In this document: positions 3,388-9,936 of the stretch, in pieces
How the letters are laid out: each line of letters opens with the position of its first letter
Position numbering within the stretch: the first letter of the stretch is position 1
NCBI GenBank assembly: GCA_029821745.1
Contig: JALGSS010000102.1
Span: 1 to 10,124, forward strand
Direction of reading: 5' to 3'
Length of the DNA: 10,124 nucleotides
Source: Candidatus Zipacnadia bacterium
GTDB lineage: Bacteria; Armatimonadota; Zipacnadia; Zipacnadales; JABUFB01
Position numbers and translations under genes: made by a program
The notes under the pieces: generated by a model
Databases searched by the model: none
Told to the model about the DNA's origin: nothing
The model's input: only the letters and a program-made list of their open reading frames with translations

Positions 3388-4242
3388 CTACTCCTCCTGG
3401 AGGCGCTCGGGTGACTCGCCTCGCTCTGCGGCTTCCTTCTCGATCCCCTTGCGAATCTTCTCGCGCGCTTCGTCAATGAGGATCTGCACGTCCTCGGTGC
3501 GGTACGTGCGCTGTTCCCACGTCCGCGCCTCCACGCTCTTCAGGAAGCCTTCGAAATCCTCGAAGTACGAGCCGTAGATGTGGAATGAATCGACGACATG
3601 GTTGTACTGGCCGACTTTGATCTCGCGGCCGATCCGCTCGCTGATGCGCTCCGCGACCGCTCGCTGCAGGTCGGTGAAGGCATACATATTCATGTACGCG
3701 GCCTTGAAGGCGTCGTTGCTGCGCATGTGGGCGGCGAGCACGAGATGATCGTCGAAGATGCGGAACCAGAGGCGCTGCAGGCACGCGGGGTCGTCGATCC
3801 CCGCGTCCTCCCACGGCTTCCAGATGACGGCCTGGGCGCGGCGCGAATGGGGCACTTCGCTGAGGGTGTCGACCACGTACTGGATCTGATCGACGGGCTC
3901 AGGCAGGCCGGGAACCGTGTACCCGGCGAAGCGCTGGTGGTAGGTGTACTGCCACTTGCCTTCTTCAGGGGCGACCCAGTGGTCGTGAATCCCGTCGAGG
4001 ACCTCCTGGCGGTAGATCTCCAGGTCGTACAGGCCGCCGGGCATGGCACGGTGAATGCGGGGCTCGGCGAAGGGATCGGCGACGGCGATCATCACCGATG
4101 CGTCGCGGCTTGGGGGATCTTCCGGGCGGTCATACTGGGTGGCGATGCGGGCGCCACGCTCCCAGGCAGCCAGGACAGCCTTCTCCCAGCCCTCTGCCAG
4201 CGTCTGTGCTTCAACATGAATGGTGGGGAGTTGGAATTGCAT
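3388..4242 (-). CDS. Thymidylate synthase (ThyA)/dCMP-hydroxymethylase family enzyme, divergent
   Basis: Collinear with E. coli ThyA. [28 protein letters not shown] aligns with [26 protein letters not shown]. The catalytic-Cys motif is [15 protein letters not shown] (ThyA ALPPCHAFFQFYVAD). [20 protein letters not shown] aligns with [32 protein letters not shown] aligns with DTHLYSNHMDQ. Differences: PPCH becomes PACL, YGKQWRAW becomes [10 protein letters not shown], and there is a Glu/Lys-rich C-terminal tail. GGAGG lies 11 nt upstream of the ATG. Confidence 0.8.
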   Translation of the reverse strand: [284 protein letters not shown]

Positions 4243-4323: not shown

Positions 4324-5829
4324 CTAGGGGGCCTGAGTGGCCTGGGCTCCCGTCAGACGCTCCCACTCTTGGACTTGCTCGGGCTCGCGCTTGGCGAGGG
4401 CCATTGCGTCCTGGGCCGCATAGTCAGGTATGCGCGAAGCTAGAGCACAAGCCATCCAGAAATAGATTCCCCCCGGTGCAAGGTACAGCGATGACCCTAC
4501 CATGAGCTGCAGGGCGAGATTCAGCGCCGAAGCCACGAGGCCGCTGGCCAGCCAAGCGTCGCGCCCGGTGCTGTGCGCCCATCCCGCAAATGCGGAGGTG
4601 AATACCCGCCACAGCAGCCAAAGGAACAGCGCCGTCCCGGGAAGCCCCAGTTCCTTCATCGCGCGGCCGACCTCATTCTCGATGAGAACCGCCGTCTCGC
4701 TCTTCACGTGCATCGGCTCGTCCATCAGGAAGACGGCCCGTCCTGCCCCCGTGCCGCTGGCAACACCGGTGCCAAGCGGATACAGCGAGAGCATCTCGAA
4801 GCCCCGCGTGAAGGGACCGATGGCTCTCTGCCAGATGACTGTCATGTTGAGACGGCTCTGAGAGTAACGGGCCGACATCATGCGGCCAACGTATTTCTCG
4901 GCTTGCCACCCACCTATCAACAGCAGGATGATGAGGCCGACGACAAGGTGGGCGCGGCGCGTCATCAGGATGAAGGCCATCAACCCGATCGCCGCACCAA
5001 CCAGCGGCGCTCGACTGCCGGTGGCTGCCATGGCCGCGAGGCAGATCGGTGCCGCCAAGAGCAATAGAACCTGGCGTAGCGAGAAAGCGCGCGCCGCCAG
5101 AGCGACGCCGATGCAGACCGTGGCGGCGAAGCTCATCGCCGACCCGGCAGTGCCGGGATGGACATACGTGCCGGGTGCCCGGACATTGGCGCCGTGAGCG
5201 AAGGCCGTGTAGAAGGCGAAGCTTGACGAGATCTTGTATAGGTGCTGGAACCCAATCCGGTGCTGGACGATCCCGTAGACGCCTGTGACAGCGCTGATCA
5301 CCGCGATGAACAAGATCAAGCGCTCGAACTGCTTGCGCGTCCGGATCGTGTCGTAGGTGATGAAGAAGACGGGAATCCAGACGCACCACGAGCGGAGGCC
5401 CGCGAGAGCCAAGGCCCAGCTAACGTTCTCGGAGTTGAACATCTGGGCGGTGCAGTACAGAATGAACATGACTGCCGGCGCGGCCACGCGATGGGACAGC
5501 GAAATGCGCGGGCTACCGTTCATGCCGTCCCAGATCCAGTGCGCCAGGGCGATGGCGAGGAAGATGTCCTTCAGGAGCATACTGAACATGCTCGGGTGGA
5601 AGCCCTTGATGATCCCGTCGAAACAGGCGACGGCTATGACGGCGTATATGGCAGCCTCGGTGGAGGCGATCGCGGCCACTGTTCCCAGCGTGGCAATGGC
5701 CGCGACCAACGCCAGCAAGGCGTTGTTCTGGGTCATCATGACGCCCACGCCGACAGCGATCGCGCTGCATACCGTCCCCACTGTCAGGAGGGCGGTCAAC
5801 TGGGGATCGGGTTGGTTCTTCCGAAGCAT
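4324..5829 (-). CDS. Polytopic membrane protein with Wzy_C / O-antigen ligase (WaaL)-like or O-antigen polymerase domain
   Basis: 501 aa with about 10-12 hydrophobic helices. The conserved Wzy_C-type loop motif is AATGSRAPLVGAAIGLMAFIL. There is a large extracytoplasmic loop before the last TM block and a charged C-terminal tail. The start codon is uncertain (no clear SD at 5829). Confidence 0.65.
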   Translation of the reverse strand: MLRKNQPDPQLTALLTVGTVCSAIAVGVGVMMTQNNALLALVAAIATLGTVAAIASTEAAIYAVIAVACFDGIIKGFHPSMFSMLLKDIFLAIALAHWIWDGMNGSPRISLSHRVAAPAVMFILYCTAQMFNSENVSWALALAGLRSWCVWIPVFFITYDTIRTRKQFERLILFIAVISAVTGVYGIVQHRIGFQHLYKISSSFAFYTAFAHGANVRAPGTYVHPGTAGSAMSFAATVCIGVALAARAFSLRQVLLLLAAPICLAAMAATGSRAPLVGAAIGLMAFILMTRRAHLVVGLIILLLIGGWQAEKYVGRMMSARYSQSRLNMTVIWQRAIGPFTRGFEMLSLYPLGTGVASGTGAGRAVFLMDEPMHVKSETAVLIENEVGRAMKELGLPGTALFLWLLWRVFTSAFAGWAHSTGRDAWLASGLVASALNLALQLMVGSSLYLAPGGIYFWMACALASRIPDYAAQDAMALAKREPEQVQEWERLTGAQATQAP

Positions 5830-6121: not shown

Positions 6122-6718
6122 ATGAAGAGCATACTGAGTTGGCTGCGACAAGTTGTGGCTGACTTTTTTAGTGCCGACCCGGATGCCGCCCGGCGGACCA
6201 CCCAAGTCGCTGAGGAAGAACTGGCGACGGAGAAGACCGTGGCAGCCCTCGCCGTCGCTCACGCCGGGCGCGCCGCACTGGCCTTGCAGGAAGCTCTCGA
6301 CAGCGGTGAGGGAGACCCCGAGCGGCTGGGGATCCTGACTGCGCAGCTCGAGGACGCACGGGAGCGCGCGCGCAGCCAGGTCGCCATCTACCGCGAGCTG
6401 CAGCAACGTGTGGCGAACGACTTGGAGCGGCTCAATGAGGCGCAGCGACTTGCCGAAATCAACGAGGAGCGCGAGCGGCTCCGACGTCTTGCGGCACTCA
6501 CTCAGCCGGGCGTCGACTCCGAGGCCCTGAATGCGCTGGAGGCCGAGGCGAAGGCCGAAGCGGCGAAGCTCGACGTACTTGACGCTCTTGACAGCGGCGC
6601 CACTGACCTGTACACGGGCAGCCACGCGGGCGACGGTCGCCAGGCGGATAACCCGGCCGTTCGCGCCCGTGAACTGCTGGCGGACAGCTCATTGGATGAT
6701 CTCTGGCCGCGGCAATAG
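6122..6718 (+). CDS. PspA/IM30 (phage-shock protein A / LiaH / Vipp1)-like coiled-coil protein, putative
   Basis: 198 aa, predicted all alpha-helical, charged and Ala/Glu/Arg/Leu-rich. N-terminal amphipathic helix SILSWLRQVVADFFSADPD resembles PspA [24 protein letters not shown]. Length and heptad character fit PF04012. AGGA lies 4-7 nt upstream of the ATG. The CDS is confident; the family call is moderate. Confidence 0.55.
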   Translation: MKSILSWLRQVVADFFSADPDAARRTTQVAEEELATEKTVAALAVAHAGRAALALQEALDSGEGDPERLGILTAQLEDARERARSQVAIYRELQQRVANDLERLNEAQRLAEINEERERLRRLAALTQPGVDSEALNALEAEAKAEAAKLDVLDALDSGATDLYTGSHAGDGRQADNPAVRARELLADSSLDDLWPRQ

Positions 6719-6763
6719 ACTGTCGGCTGTCGGCAAGGCCGAGAACCGAAGGGAGCGTGCACG

Positions 6764-7645
6764 ATGGAATTGCTGGCCTGGTACAATCTGGTTTTCCTCG
6801 CGCCGATCGGGCTGGCGGGTGTTTATCTCATTCTCAGCGCCACGGGACTGGGTGGCCACGACGTTGATGCCGACGCCGATGCCGATCTGGACCTCGATCA
6901 CGACGTGGATGTGGATCTGGATCTCGACCACGACGTGGACGTGGACTTGGATCACGATGTCGATCTGGACCTGGACCATGACGTCGACGTCGACCTGGAC
7001 CATGATGTCGACGTGGACCTGGACCATGATGTCGACGTGGACCTGGACCATGACGTCGACGTGGATCACGACGTGGATGTTGACCACGATGTCGACGCCG
7101 AGCATCACGTGGCGCCGGAAGGCATCGAGCACGAGGCCTACGCCAGCCACGTGAGCGCGCACAGTGAGCACTCGCTGTTCATCCGGGCGCTGTCGGTGCT
7201 CGGGGTCGGGCGGGTGCCGGTGTCGATCCTACTGACCACCCTCATGGTGCTCTTCGGAGCGATTGGCCTGGTCTGCAACGGCCTGTTTGAACTCGTGCTG
7301 CCCTGGGAATGGGCCCCCAACATCTACGTGTGGCCCTCCATGGGTGTCGCATGTGTCGTGTCGCTCGTGCTGACCAGCAAGTTCGCCCGGCTGATGTACC
7401 GGGTCATGCCCACCAGTGAGACCTATGCGGTCAAGCCTGTCGAACTCGTCGGCCGGATCGGGGCGGCAGTCTACGAGCTCAGAGAAGGCGAGAAGGGCGT
7501 CGTCGACGTGAAGGATGAAGGTGGAACGTGGCAGCGGATCGCCGCGGAGTCCACCGAAGAGCAGATCGGGAAGGGCGAAGACGTCATCATAGTGCGATAC
7601 CACAGGGAGGGCGACTACTACGATGTCAGCCGCTCGCCTCTGTGA
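6764..7645 (+). CDS. NfeD-short / YqiJ-family membrane protein (flotillin partner) with expanded (Asp-X)n His-rich loop
   Basis: TM1 is LLAWYNLVFLAPIGLAGVYLILSATGL. An acidic repeat loop (residues ~32-115) follows. HSLFIRALSVLGVGRVPVSILL aligns with E. coli YqiJ [20 protein letters not shown] as I recall it. Two more TM segments follow. The C-terminal OB-fold NfeD domain is VKPVELVGRIGAAVYELREGEKGVVDVKDEGGTWQRIAAESTEEQIGKGEDVIIVRYHREGDYYDV (G..G.V...G.V.V...W.A...I..G..V.V pattern). RBS AAGGGAG lies 8 nt upstream. The start is 45 nt after the upstream gene. Confidence 0.8.
   Translation: MELLAWYNLVFLAPIGLAGVYLILSATGLGGHDVDADADADLDLDHDVDVDLDLDHDVDVDLDHDVDLDLDHDVDVDLDHDVDVDLDHDVDVDLDHDVDVDHDVDVDHDVDAEHHVAPEGIEHEAYASHVSAHSEHSLFIRALSVLGVGRVPVSILLTTLMVLFGAIGLVCNGLFELVLPWEWAPNIYVWPSMGVACVVSLVLTSKFARLMYRVMPTSETYAVKPVELVGRIGAAVYELREGEKGVVDVKDEGGTWQRIAAESTEEQIGKGEDVIIVRYHREGDYYDVSRSPL
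6860..7096 (+). repeat. In-frame tandem repeat encoding 79 residues of strictly alternating Asp-X (X = V/L/H/A), about nine 8-residue DHDVDVDL-type units; underlying 24-nt DNA repeat with two identical adjacent copies (6998..7021 and 7022..7045)
   Basis: Codon string is gac cat gat gtc gac gtg gac ctg repeated. Neighbouring copies differ only at synonymous third positions (gac/gat, gtc/gtg), while outer copies are more diverged. Confidence 0.9.
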
Positions 7646-7859
7646 GCTGAGGATGGGCCGGGCGCCGCTTCCGCCCCATGTCGGCAGGTTCAAGCCTGCG
7701 GTACGGGCCTGGCAGACGCGAGCTCTCCATCGCCTGCTGCGGCCTCAGTGGCGCGGAGCGAAGAGAGTCCGCGAGGCGCATCTGGTCCTGGACGTGGCCG
7801 CAGGGATGGCCGCCTACCTGGGCTCGGCCAACTTGCCGCCGCCCACCCAGAACTAGCCT

Positions 7860-7888
7860 TTGCGCGCCGGTAGCTGCAGTCGTCTAAA
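7860..7888 (+). promoter_or_regulatory. Weak candidate internal promoter for the flotillin gene: -35 TTGCGC (7860..7865), 17-bp spacer, -10 TCTAAA (7883..7888)
   Basis: Spacing is canonical, but both hexamers match only 4/6. A GC hairpin CGCCGCC-GTCAGAC-GGTGGCG (7892..7912) lies between it and the RBS AGGAGGG (7917..7923). Confidence 0.2.
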
Positions 7889-7930
7889 CCCGCCGCCGTC
7901 AGACGGTGGCGTCATCAGGAGGGAACTTCC

Positions 7931-9874
7931 GTGGCAATGGCAATTGGGATGGTGCTGTTAGGTCTTGGGATGATCATCGGCGGGGCGCAGTACGCCGTGA
8001 CCGACCGGATAAGTGGGTTGATCTTCATCGTCCTTGGGGCGCTAGTACTGGTAGCCGCGGCGATCGTCATCATCGTGGCGAAGCTGTACCAGCGAACCAG
8101 CGCGAACGAGGCGTTCGTGCGGACGGGTGTAGGTGGCCGGAGGGTAGTGCTCGACGGTGGCTGCATCGTGATACCGGTCGTCCACAGGGTCGTGCCGGTC
8201 TCCCTTGAGACGATGAAACTGGAGGTCGAGCGTGTCGCCGAGGATGCGCTCATCACGCAGGACAACCTGCGCTGCGACATCCGGGGAGAGTTCTACATCA
8301 AGGTGCAGGCGCAGGAAGACGACATTCTCAACGCGTCACGGTCCCTGGGTGACCGGTCCATCAACGCGGCGGCCGTGCGCGACCTGATCTTCGAAAAGCT
8401 CGTATCGGCGCTGCGTTCCGTGGCCGCGACGCGCGAACTGTCGCAGTTGCACACCGAGCGCGACGACTTCGCCGGCGCCGTGTCGGCCCTCGTCCGCGAG
8501 GACCTGAAGTCCAACGGTCTGACGCTTGAGTCCGTCACGATCTCCCGACTCGACCAAACGGACACGGACCGCCTCAACGCCGACAACGTGTTCGATGCCC
8601 AGGGCCTGCGGAAGATCGCAGAGATCACGCAGCAGGCCCGCGTCGAGCGCAACATGTATGAGCGAGATGCGGAGCGCGAAATCTCGAACAAGGACGTCGA
8701 CACTCGCAAGCAGGTGCTCGACTTCGAGAAGGACCAGGCGCAGGCTGTGGCGACCCAGCAGTCCGAGGTCGCCATCATCCAGGCCGAGAGAGCACGGCAA
8801 GCGGAGACGTACGAGATAGAGCAGCGCCTGCTCGTCGAGACGAAGGATATCTCCAAGGACCGGCAGGTTCAGGAAGCGGGCGTCGAGCGTGACTTGCAGG
8901 TCAATATCCGGAAGGTCGAGGCCGAGAAGGAGCTGATCGCGAAGGAGCAGGAACAGCAGACTGCGGACATCCTGCGCAACGAGGCGATCCAGACCGCCGA
9001 CGTCGAGCGCGAGCGGGCTGTGGAAGTCGCGACCCGCGAACAGCAGATCGCCGTGGCTGAGGCGGAGCAGCGCCGCGCGTTCGCTGAACAGGCCCAGCTC
9101 GACGCCGAAGCCCAGCGGGAGCAGGCAGCGCAGGAAGTCGTCACGGTTGAGGAAGTTGCCAAGGCCGACCGTGACAAGCGGGTCCAGGTCATCCTTGCTC
9201 AGCAGCAGGCGGAGCAGGAAAAGATCAAGCAGCAGATGGAAGCCGATATCGACGCGTACAAGAACGCTAAGGTGGCCGAAGGCGAGCAGCTCGCGACCCG
9301 GAGCCTTGCGGACGCCATCCGGACCAAGGCCGAAGCCGAGCGGGACGCCGCATCTCTCACCGCCGACGGCGAACAGGCCAAGCAGATGGTGCCCGTCAAC
9401 GTTCTCCGCGAGCAAGTCGCTGTTGACGCCACCCGCGTCCAGGACGTCGACGCCGCCAAGGTCGAGGTTCTGCGCAATGAGCTGAGCGCCAAGGCCGAGT
9501 ACGACCAGATTTCGGTCGAGCTCGAGAAGGCGCTGGCGCAGATCAACGCCAACAAGGAGGTCGGGGTCGCCTTCGCCGCCAGCTTCGGCGAGGCCTTCAG
9601 TCAGGCCGACCTGAACCTGTACGGCGACGCCAACATGCTCGGCACGGCCATGAGCTCCTTCACGAAGGCGGCCGGTATCGGCGCGTTCATGGACGGGATG
9701 AAGGAGACGATGCCCACAGGCGCCATCGAGACGGGCGCGGCCGCGCTTCAGGCGATGTTCCCGCAGTTGAAGCAGGCCATGGACGTCGTGACATCGGCCA
9801 AGGATGCAGAGCCGGAAGAGGCCGAGACGGACGAACCGCAGGCGCCGCCTACAGACACCGGCGAACCCGTGTAG
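7931..9874 (+). CDS. Flotillin-like SPFH/band-7 protein (YqiK / FloT family)
   Basis: GTG start 7 nt after AGGAGGG. There is an N-terminal membrane hairpin (GMVLLGLGMIIGG...LIFIVLGALVLVAAAIVIIV). YQRTSANEAFVRTGVGGRRVVLDGGCIVIPVVHRVVPVSLETMKLEVER is nearly identical in pattern to E. coli YqiK YRRASAEQAFVRTGLGGQKVVMSGGAIVMPIFHEIIPINMNTLKLEVSR. A long E/A/Q/R-rich coiled-coil flotillin region and C-terminal tail follow. 647 aa. Confidence 0.9.
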   Translation: MAMAIGMVLLGLGMIIGGAQYAVTDRISGLIFIVLGALVLVAAAIVIIVAKLYQRTSANEAFVRTGVGGRRVVLDGGCIVIPVVHRVVPVSLETMKLEVERVAEDALITQDNLRCDIRGEFYIKVQAQEDDILNASRSLGDRSINAAAVRDLIFEKLVSALRSVAATRELSQLHTERDDFAGAVSALVREDLKSNGLTLESVTISRLDQTDTDRLNADNVFDAQGLRKIAEITQQARVERNMYERDAEREISNKDVDTRKQVLDFEKDQAQAVATQQSEVAIIQAERARQAETYEIEQRLLVETKDISKDRQVQEAGVERDLQVNIRKVEAEKELIAKEQEQQTADILRNEAIQTADVERERAVEVATREQQIAVAEAEQRRAFAEQAQLDAEAQREQAAQEVVTVEEVAKADRDKRVQVILAQQQAEQEKIKQQMEADIDAYKNAKVAEGEQLATRSLADAIRTKAEAERDAASLTADGEQAKQMVPVNVLREQVAVDATRVQDVDAAKVEVLRNELSAKAEYDQISVELEKALAQINANKEVGVAFAASFGEAFSQADLNLYGDANMLGTAMSSFTKAAGIGAFMDGMKETMPTGAIETGAAALQAMFPQLKQAMDVVTSAKDAEPEEAETDEPQAPPTDTGEPV

Positions 9875-9936
9875 TCAGGTAAGTCGGCTGAGAGGCCTCC
9901 GGCAAGGCCGGAACCGGCCCGTTGTTGATGCACATG

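Follow-up and report, generated by a model that had tools for sequence, protein, structure and literature searches.

A strictly alternating, histidine-punctuated Asp-X tract in a YqiJ-type flotillin partner is a clade-wide expansion of a family-wide Asp/His-rich loop

RESULTS

The Asp-X tract and its gene

In this study, we analyzed a 10,124-nucleotide (nt) stretch of DNA from a Candidatus Zipacnadia bacterium (Armatimonadota; assembly GCA_029821745.1, contig JALGSS010000102.1), referred to here as the window, which carries a cluster of three genes encoding, in this order, a 198-amino-acid (aa) helical protein, a YqiJ-like membrane protein, and a YqiK-type flotillin. The open reading frame (ORF) of the YqiJ-like protein (6764..7645, + strand) has a 293-aa product, in which Asp alternates with another residue (X) over 80 residues with zero exceptions (residues 33 to 112; 6860..7099, +). 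Based on comparison with relatives, we show that this (Asp-X)40 tract arose by clade-wide expansion of a loop in which Asp and His abound throughout the YqiJ-type family, and we discuss whether the loop might bind divalent cations. All 40 Asp stand at the odd positions of the tract, and the X positions are filled by 17 Val, 10 Leu, 9 His, and 4 Ala. The 9 His (residues 46, 56, 64, 72, 80, 88, 96, 102, and 108) are spaced by 10, then five times by 8, and then twice by 6 residues, with H32 directly preceding the tract and H114/H115 directly following it. These counts confirm the unbroken alternation and the 40 Asp and about 9 His reported in an initial annotation of this DNA, whose coordinates for the tract, 6860-7096, were off by one codon.

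The core unit of the tract, HDVDVDLD, is present in four copies plus variants. In the DNA, the tract is built of degenerate 24-nt and 18-nt units, and Tandem Repeats Finder reports a 24-nt period at 6918..7065 (6.2 copies, 85% matches). Just 5 Asp are found in the 213 residues outside the tract, and at the protein's overall Asp frequency the chance of 40 successive alternate Asp is ∼2.5e-33. Conserved homologous sequence flanks the tract on both sides and fixes the reading frame; the ORFs that overlap it in another frame (6531..7154, +) or in antisense (6689..7171, −) were rejected as genes and are by-products of the repeat. The source is a short-read metagenome contig (Joint Genome Institute [JGI] 3300033148), and the copy number is given as assembled; since the longest exact repeated word in the tract is just 38 nt, collapse of the repeat during assembly is unlikely.

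Host protein, domains, and predicted structure

The tract almost certainly forms the loop between transmembrane (TM) helices 1 and 2 of a YqiJ-type, NfeD2-like (DUF1449) membrane protein encoded in a conserved gene cluster. An AlphaFold model built on a 21-sequence alignment, which replaced a poor single-sequence model (predicted local distance difference test [pLDDT], 52.7), contains helices at residues 6-26, 153-178, and 185-214, a short helix at 138-145, and a β-barrel at 230-290 (pLDDT ∼90), with residues 30-137 unstructured (pLDDT 30-43 across the loop and its tract). Three predicted TM helices followed by a soluble β domain are the arrangement of YqiJ/DUF1449 proteins. Combined with hydropathy, charge counts, and alignment, the model places TM1 at residues 8-28 (6785..6847, +; helix pLDDT 70-86), TM2 at residues 153-178 (7220..7297, +), and TM3 at residues 185-214 (7316..7405, +), the last followed by a Lys/Arg-rich, probably cytoplasmic flank. 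Between the tract and TM2 lie a nonrepetitive His/Glu-rich loop tail with 7 His (residues 113-137; 7100..7174, +), which aligns with a His/Glu-rich segment of the homologs (e.g., a GxEHEVH motif), and a short conserved helix with the family anchor motif RALSVLGVGRVP (residues 138-152; 7175..7219, +) that leads into TM2. In the family alignment, W6, N8, F11, P14, and G28 are near-invariant in the TM1 region, and G147, G149, and P152 in the anchor motif and G165, G168, and N172 in TM2 are invariant.

The Pfam model YqiJ_N (PF21001) matches the native protein with 23.5 bits, against a cutoff of 23, over profile positions 40-113. When the 80-residue tract is deleted, the score rises to 31.8 bits (E = 1.8e-7) and the match extends to profile positions 14-113, spanning most of TM1 through TM3, which places the tract as an expansion inside the first loop of YqiJ_N. 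BLASTP aligns the protein with Escherichia coli YqiJ from TM2 to the OB domain (E = 6e-7, 23% identity). At the C terminus, an NfeD-like OB-fold β-barrel (residues 225-290; 7436..7633, +) is predicted: its two best Foldseek matches in the PDB are NfeD soluble domains, namely, 2K14, which is Bacillus subtilis YuaF (E = 3.7e-4, target TM-score 0.71), and 3CP0 (E = 9.5e-4, target TM-score 0.72), and a profile of the conserved part of the protein matches YuaF with E = 0.044. Pfam YqiJ_OB (PF07290), against which E. coli YqiJ scores 54 bits, has no match at E <= 0.1 in the window protein or in the homologs P0019, P0020, and P0109, and we thus file the protein as a divergent YqiJ_N-type branch and not as a strict YqiJ ortholog. 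Pfam NfeD (PF01957) likewise has no match at E <= 0.01 in the window protein, in line with the literature, which treats NfeD2/YuaF/YqiJ as NfeD homologs with hardly any conservation (PMC2636767). In that work and in a preprint on the phage shock protein (PSP) system, YqiJ and YuaF are the weakly conserved three-TM NfeD2 partners of SPFH2 flotillins (PMC2636767), and a YqiK-type flotillin gene indeed lies downstream here. The initial annotation's identification of the host as a YqiJ/NfeD-type flotillin partner with the tract in its TM1-TM2 loop is thus upheld; of the Pfam families it named, YqiJ is matched through the YqiJ_N model, and NfeD is not.

The tract in relatives

To keep the repeat from recruiting matches, we searched for homologs with the tract-free residues 113-293 only, which returned 22 homologs. 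All 14 full-length close homologs (P0001-P0014, 54-66% identical) carry their own His-punctuated (Asp/Glu-X)n tract, and similar tracts are present in 23 of 23 distinct Armatimonadota relatives, whose loops span 70-167 aa, contain 22-67 acidic residues and 6-23 His, and have next to no Lys or Arg. The 42 strictly alternating Asp of one relative (L009) exceed the 40 of the window, and another (L004) has a 167-aa loop with 60 Asp and 23 His. The impression that this protein is singular was not borne out: tracts of equal or greater length are common among its homologs, which is the outcome that the initial annotation had named as speaking against its reading.

An exhaustive profile search defined a YqiJ-type family of 2,374 clusters at 50% identity, and we calculated loop statistics for 119 representatives outside the clade, drawn from the best 150 of these clusters. 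Their loops are shorter (median length, 42 aa) and similar in composition: His makes up 15.4% of loop residues, compared to 1.3% of the remaining protein, and the pooled loops contain 20% Asp, 6% Glu, 0.8% Lys plus Arg, and 0.1% Cys. At least 3 His are present in 104 of the 119 loops, and 92 have zero Lys/Arg. Across the window protein, the clade, and the family, His constantly occupies 23-24% of the X positions and Asp 88-92% of the acidic positions, and Lys or Arg is found at 0 of the ∼1,200 X positions examined. What distinguishes the clade is the long loop (∼108-120 aa with 40 Asp, 5 Glu, and 16 His in the window protein), a His spacing of 6 or 8 residues (2-4 in the family), and hydrophobic X residues (Val/Leu/Ile/Met/Phe), which account for 60-68% of X positions in the clade versus 36% in the family, where X is mostly Ala, Gly, Ser, Thr, or His. 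The alternating acidic run has a family median of 5 and a maximum of 18-22, depending on how the loop is delimited, compared to 41 in the window protein, in line with the earlier proposal that a short conserved motif had been amplified.

These data show that the tract is a clade-wide expansion of a family-wide Asp/His-rich loop. Of the initial description of a repeat inserted into the first loop, the position stands, and the one-off insertion gives way to loop growth within the Armatimonadota, where 6- to 8-residue units were gained and lost in frame and the loop now measures 70-167 residues. A lineage-wide compositional bias was rejected as an explanation, as alternating acidic runs of at least 9 occur in this gene alone among 473 ORFs of at least 100 aa from the window and related loci. 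Elsewhere in the family, lineages seem to have built long loops of their own from different units: outside the clade, P0163 has a 123-aa loop with GDADVHVDVD-type repeats, P0109 has (DHDxDHDx)n with 17 His, and P0089 has 22 alternating acidic residues and no His.

Only three fragments were returned by a search with the tract alone against 5.8 billion proteins: two come from the N termini of members of this family, and one is an unrelated low-complexity sequence; the HMMER bias correction probably suppresses matches to such a query. In an Armatimonadia metagenome-assembled genome (MAG), a run of N lies inside the Asp-X tract and splits the gene into two ORFs (L012, 5644..5972); because such tracts can break short-read scaffolds, repeat numbers from MAGs need caution. 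A distant member, P0017 (L021, 134..1078), is 35% identical in the conserved part and has an extra N-terminal region of ∼100 aa, with an additional TM helix and an H-x3-C-x2-C motif (HLGGCQRC), and a Band_7 gene still follows it. We take this motif to resemble the zinc-binding anti-sigma (ZAS) signature, and P0017 could represent a YqiJ-type protein fused to an anti-sigma-like sensor domain.

Selection on the peptide and evolution of the repeat

Between five 8-residue units of the tract, we counted 31 synonymous and 4 replacement codon-pair differences. In the two closest species pairs, synonymous and replacement changes stand at 19:8 and 37:16 in the loop, which matches the 26:8 and 40:15 of the rest of the protein, and the only indels fall in the tract; they measure 10, 16, and 12 aa, all even, with the 16- and 12-residue indels each corresponding to two whole repeat units. 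Asp codons in the loops of the window and L003-L013 (pooled) comprise 277 GAC and 138 GAT (33% GAT), compared to 366 GAC and 79 GAT (18% GAT) in the adjacent flotillins (P = 2e-7 for loop versus flotillin). This mixture is consistent with decay of DNA identity between old repeats or with selection that disfavors perfect ones. Exact DNA repeats in the loops reach no more than 11-57 nt, and one 38-nt exact duplication in the window tract marks a recent unit gain. Judged from the nucleotide sequences, the repeats are mostly old and degenerate in DNA, with occasional recent unit gains and the peptide pattern kept, and the tract is under purifying selection. The mixed Asp codons, the 31 to 4 count, and the ratios resembling those of the folded parts all support the selection on the peptide that had been proposed from synonymous differences between copies.

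Predicted topology

Lys plus Arg counts are 0 in the N terminus, 2 in loop 1 (both beside TM2, one of them within the conserved GxG(R/K)xP motif), 0 in loop 2, and 4 after TM3. Two TM helices separate loop 1 from the OB domain and thus place both on one side of the membrane. NfeD OB domains and SPFH scaffolds are cytoplasmic (PMC11222466), and the QmcA-YbbJ cage consists of 26 heterodimers and protrudes into the cytoplasm (PMC13086221). The N terminus is thus most likely outside, and loop 1 and the C terminus most likely cytoplasmic according to the predicted helices, so that loop 1 would face the cytoplasmic flotillin scaffold on the side of the OB domain.

Gene neighborhood

The downstream gene (7931..9874, +) encodes a 647-aa flotillin of the YqiK type (SPFH2; Pfam Band_7, E = 2.9e-20) that is 35% identical to E. 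coli YqiK over 451 aa (E = 5e-73). In all clade loci, an ortholog with 71-77% identity comes directly after the YqiJ-like gene, and the adjacency extends to Phycisphaerae, Rhodothermales, Herpetosiphonaceae, and soil contigs. A same-strand YqiK-type flotillin gene, as expected next to a YqiJ/DUF1449 gene, thus adjoins the YqiJ-like gene in all related loci examined, and we read the NfeD-flotillin partnership from this gene adjacency. The two genes are separated by an unusually long gap of 285 nt (7646..7930), which contains most of a 77-aa ORF called by JGI (7623..7856, +) that has no counterpart in related loci and is probably spurious. In L006-L011 and L013, the YqiJ-like protein has a C-terminal tail of ∼30-45 aa, which the window protein lacks, and the gap may be a remnant of this tail. 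A terminator-like hairpin, a weak candidate identified by consensus match alone, lies 32 nt past the flotillin stop codon (9906..9919, +) and is the only such site on the + strand outside coding regions, with two others being intragenic (6136..6165 and 6801..6817).

The upstream gene (6122..6718, +) encodes a helical, Glu/Arg-rich protein of 198 aa with a conserved N-terminal SWLRxxVADFF. An ortholog (36-46% identity) lies immediately upstream of the YqiJ-like gene in 11 of 12 Armatimonadota loci; in the twelfth (L002), the contig ends inside the YqiJ-like gene and cuts off the upstream position. The three-gene cluster is present in twelve Armatimonadota genomes and in one bin labeled WS1, and the 198-aa protein is absent from the distant family loci examined. 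It has no Pfam or PDB match, and we rejected its identification as PspA, known from the PspA-flotillin-YqiJ operons of the phage shock protein literature, given an hhalign probability of 0.2% against E. coli PspA. It is possibly a third, clade-specific part of the flotillin module.

Divergently upstream of the cluster, 4324..5829 (−) encodes a 501-aa polytopic membrane protein with a weak Wzy_C (O-antigen ligase) match below the cutoff (E = 9e-4); it adjoins nucleotidyl-transferase and PAP2 genes, which suggests an envelope-glycan neighborhood. Farther away, the product of 3388..4242 (−) is thymidylate-synthase-like, and its best NCBIfam match is the archaeal-type thy_syn_methano (TIGR03283; E = 3.9e-32, 111 bits, under the 174.55-bit cutoff) and not one of the bacterial ThyA models; L003 has a 76%-identical ortholog. 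Rfam and tRNA scans of the window returned nothing.

DISCUSSION

A putative cation-binding loop

Our analysis describes a loop in which Asp and His are constant and Lys, Arg, and Cys are excluded, a composition that points to sites for hard or borderline divalent cations. Asp and His are classic ligands for such metals, and negative charge alone would require neither His nor a 9:1 preference of Asp over Glu. We tentatively favor the view, at a level of confidence somewhat short of even, that the loop, tethered at the flotillin/NfeD assembly, binds divalent cations with high capacity and low affinity, based on loop composition and on analogues. The carboxylates would bind Mg2+ or Ca2+, and His together with Asp would bind Zn2+, Fe2+, Mn2+, or Ni2+. 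Unliganded, the loop would be an extended polyanionic coil, which cation binding or His protonation could neutralize; once neutralized, the (hydrophobic-Asp)n pattern of the clade may favor a coil-to-β transition and strand pairing between neighboring subunits. In this way, metal or pH status could be coupled to the packing of NfeD-flotillin oligomers, or cations could be concentrated at the microdomain. We consider it rather doubtful that such a coil-to-β switch modulates the flotillin scaffold, and quite unlikely that YqiJ-type NfeD proteins at large are the metal-binding subunits of bacterial flotillin assemblies, with a coil-to-β transition gating scaffold packing.

Several precedents are consistent with cation binding. 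In ZnT/CDF transporters, cytosolic His-loops of variable length recruit or sense Zn2+ (PMC10932157), and because known His-rich metal loops are disordered too, the predicted disorder of loop 1 does not argue against metal binding. At physiological pH, the (Ile-Asp)4 peptide adopts a random coil; 1.5 mM Ca2+ converts it to β-sheet, and it then self-assembles and chelates Ca2+ (PMC9514854). In Shewanella, deletion of a YqiK-type flotillin encoded beside a DUF1449 gene lowered free iron detectable by electron paramagnetic resonance threefold, and the authors proposed the DUF1449 protein as a metallochaperone (PMC1468410), which offers a circumstantial link to a metal role.

A number of observations weigh against this reading. 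The argument is built on composition and analogy, and the Shewanella phenotype is pleiotropic and stems from deletion of the flotillin, not of the YqiJ homolog (PMC1468410). No metal transport or regulation gene recurs beside the pair in the related loci examined, and 7 of the 119 family loops lack His, which is thus not essential everywhere. Millimolar cytoplasmic Mg2+ may permanently screen the charge of the tract, leaving little room for a switch, and AlphaFold, which cannot model metal-induced folding, shows no ordered state. The topology is itself a prediction, and strongly acidic loops are typical of periplasmic segments as well.

Other explanations of the tract

The tract could instead be a passive polyanionic brush or spacer, acting by charge and excluded volume with no specific ligand, that keeps NfeD subunits or the membrane patch apart, repels anionic lipids or nucleic acids, or sets the geometry of the cage; His would then add just mild pH sensitivity. 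Predicted disorder, the near-zero Lys/Arg content and very high negative charge in clade and family, and a tract length that is free to vary among close relatives (70 to 167 aa), as if bulk properties outweighed exact sites, all agree with such a role. We nevertheless regard it as unlikely, because charge does not explain a 12-fold enrichment of His and its constant 23-24% share of X positions in a very divergent family, because generic entropic bristles are usually mixtures of Glu, Lys, Ser, and Pro and not strictly alternating with ∼9:1 Asp over Glu, and because replacement changes are as constrained as in folded domains. A holdase function, in which the alternating hydrophobic/acidic strand pairs with β-strands or hydrophobic patches that unfolded membrane-proximal clients expose and the Asp face keeps these clients soluble, draws on the finding that FloA-NfeD stabilizes unfolded proteins without ATP, with NfeD aiding capture (PMC11222466), and on the amphipathic β pattern given by 60-68% hydrophobic X in the clade. 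This hydrophobic face is not conserved outside the clade, at 36% hydrophobic X, and the Staphylococcus aureus NfeD of that study is of a different, six-TM type for which no such loop is described (PMC11222466), and we find a holdase improbable.

Were the topology inverted, loop 1 would be periplasmic or envelope-facing and could bind Ca2+, Mg2+, or envelope polymers. Long acidic loops without Lys/Arg are a common feature of translocated segments, and binding of Ca2+ by alternating Asp is classic chemistry, with a precedent in the peptide described above (PMC9514854). However, two confidently predicted TM helices put loop 1 on the side of the OB domain, whose partner, the flotillin SPFH domain, is cytoplasmic, and both the Arg/Lys of GxG(R/K)xP beside TM2 and the Lys/Arg-rich flank after TM3 fit the cytoplasm; we give this arrangement a very small chance. 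That the tract is a functionless product of neutral slippage or an assembly artefact is effectively refuted. It is a tandem repeat on a short-read metagenome contig, one relative (L012) has an assembly gap within it, and the 38-nt exact duplication shows recent unit gain; yet in-frame tracts of this pattern recur in over 20 independent assemblies, the protein sequence on either side is conserved and uninterrupted, and the synonymous-to-replacement ratio equals that of the folded domains. Degenerate DNA repeats that preserve an exact peptide pattern exclude neutral slippage and, together with the independent assemblies, exclude an artefact as well.

Significance

The biochemical role of bacterial flotillins and of their NfeD/YqiJ partners is still unsettled. 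The present work puts the window protein, a divergent member of a known family and not a new system, into the perspective of that family, where the first loop of the YqiJ-type partner is Asp/His-rich, nearly free of Lys/Arg, and under selection in every branch sampled. This turns the function of the partner into a simple, testable metal or pH hypothesis, which could connect the homeostasis of metals or pH with flotillin microdomains. If cation binding holds and the 1:1 stoichiometry of the 26-mer QmcA-YbbJ cage applies, each Armatimonadota assembly would hold some 1,000 or more carboxylates and several hundred imidazoles at a single membrane patch, forming a cation-responsive element that stores, buffers, or senses metals such as Fe2+, Zn2+, or Mn2+. 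The conserved Asp/His loop would thereby gain a function, and the free-iron phenotype of the Shewanella flotillin mutant would be explained. Should the loop be merely a charged spacer, it would still be a clear case of a low-complexity repeat under purifying selection.

The searchable literature yielded neither an account of the Asp/His-rich loop as a hallmark of the family nor one of the giant alternating version: the combination of NfeD, flotillin, and histidine-rich was not found, and publications mentioning YqiJ contain nothing on the loop. A silver chemical-genetic hit table includes yqiJ, and a yqiJ frameshift in Salmonella had no phenotype in egg white.

Comparison with known systems

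The alternating pattern has several counterparts in unrelated proteins. Like the tract, the Ser-Asp repeats of the staphylococcal MSCRAMM adhesins ClfA, ClfB, SdrC, and SdrD are long dipeptide repeats with Asp at every second position; in contrast to it, they form secreted, wall-anchored stalks, with no architectural similarity to the window protein. The NCBIfam MSCRAMM/Sdr models do match, in the repeat region only (E = 1e-7 to 1e-10), and we rejected this identity as a compositional artefact, with scores of 28-38 bits where the cutoffs are 999-2500. A comparable alternation features in the (Asp-Y)n model of acidic shell-matrix proteins. The (Ile-Asp)4 peptide, ID8, shares the alternating hydrophobic-Asp pattern but is synthetic, comprises 8 residues, acts on extracellular Ca2+, and has no His, whereas the window tract has 80 residues and is tethered at both ends (PMC9514854).

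With the His-rich loops of ZnT/CDF and ZIP transporters, loop 1 shares predicted disorder, variable length, a probable cytosolic location between TM helices, and enrichment in His, often with Asp (PMC10932157); the window tract is far more acidic and strictly alternating, and the resemblance is an analogy only. In the family alignment, the TM helices contain no conserved Asp, His, Glu, or Cys that would form a recognizable transport site, which argues against a transporter role, and the invariant residues of the TM domain are Gly, Pro, Asn, Ser, and Thr.

The closest relationships are with the NfeD-type flotillin partners themselves. The predicted barrel superimposes on B. subtilis YuaF/NfeD2 and another NfeD OB-domain protein (2K14 and 3CP0, respectively; target TM-scores 0.71-0.72), whose operon logic with a flotillin is the same (PMC2636767), although the window protein differs from NfeD OB-domain proteins at large in having no significant Pfam NfeD match. 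E. coli YqiJ (YqiJ_N plus YqiJ_OB) is only 23% identical, and YqiJ_OB matches its C-terminal domain and not that of the window protein; its loop, moreover, has ∼14-30 residues and 3 Asp, whereas that of the window protein has 108-120 residues with 16 His, 40 Asp, and 5 Glu. Both proteins nevertheless share the three-TM-plus-OB architecture, a position upstream of a flotillin gene (yqiK in E. coli), and the G(R/K)xP anchor ahead of TM2. At the equivalent loop position, E. coli YqiJ reads ...GALDAHLDHYDSITTGH... ahead of NIGRLP, so that the short His/Asp stretch given in the initial annotation is real, and this motif (DAHLDHYD...GH) is the counterpart in E. coli of the tract described here.

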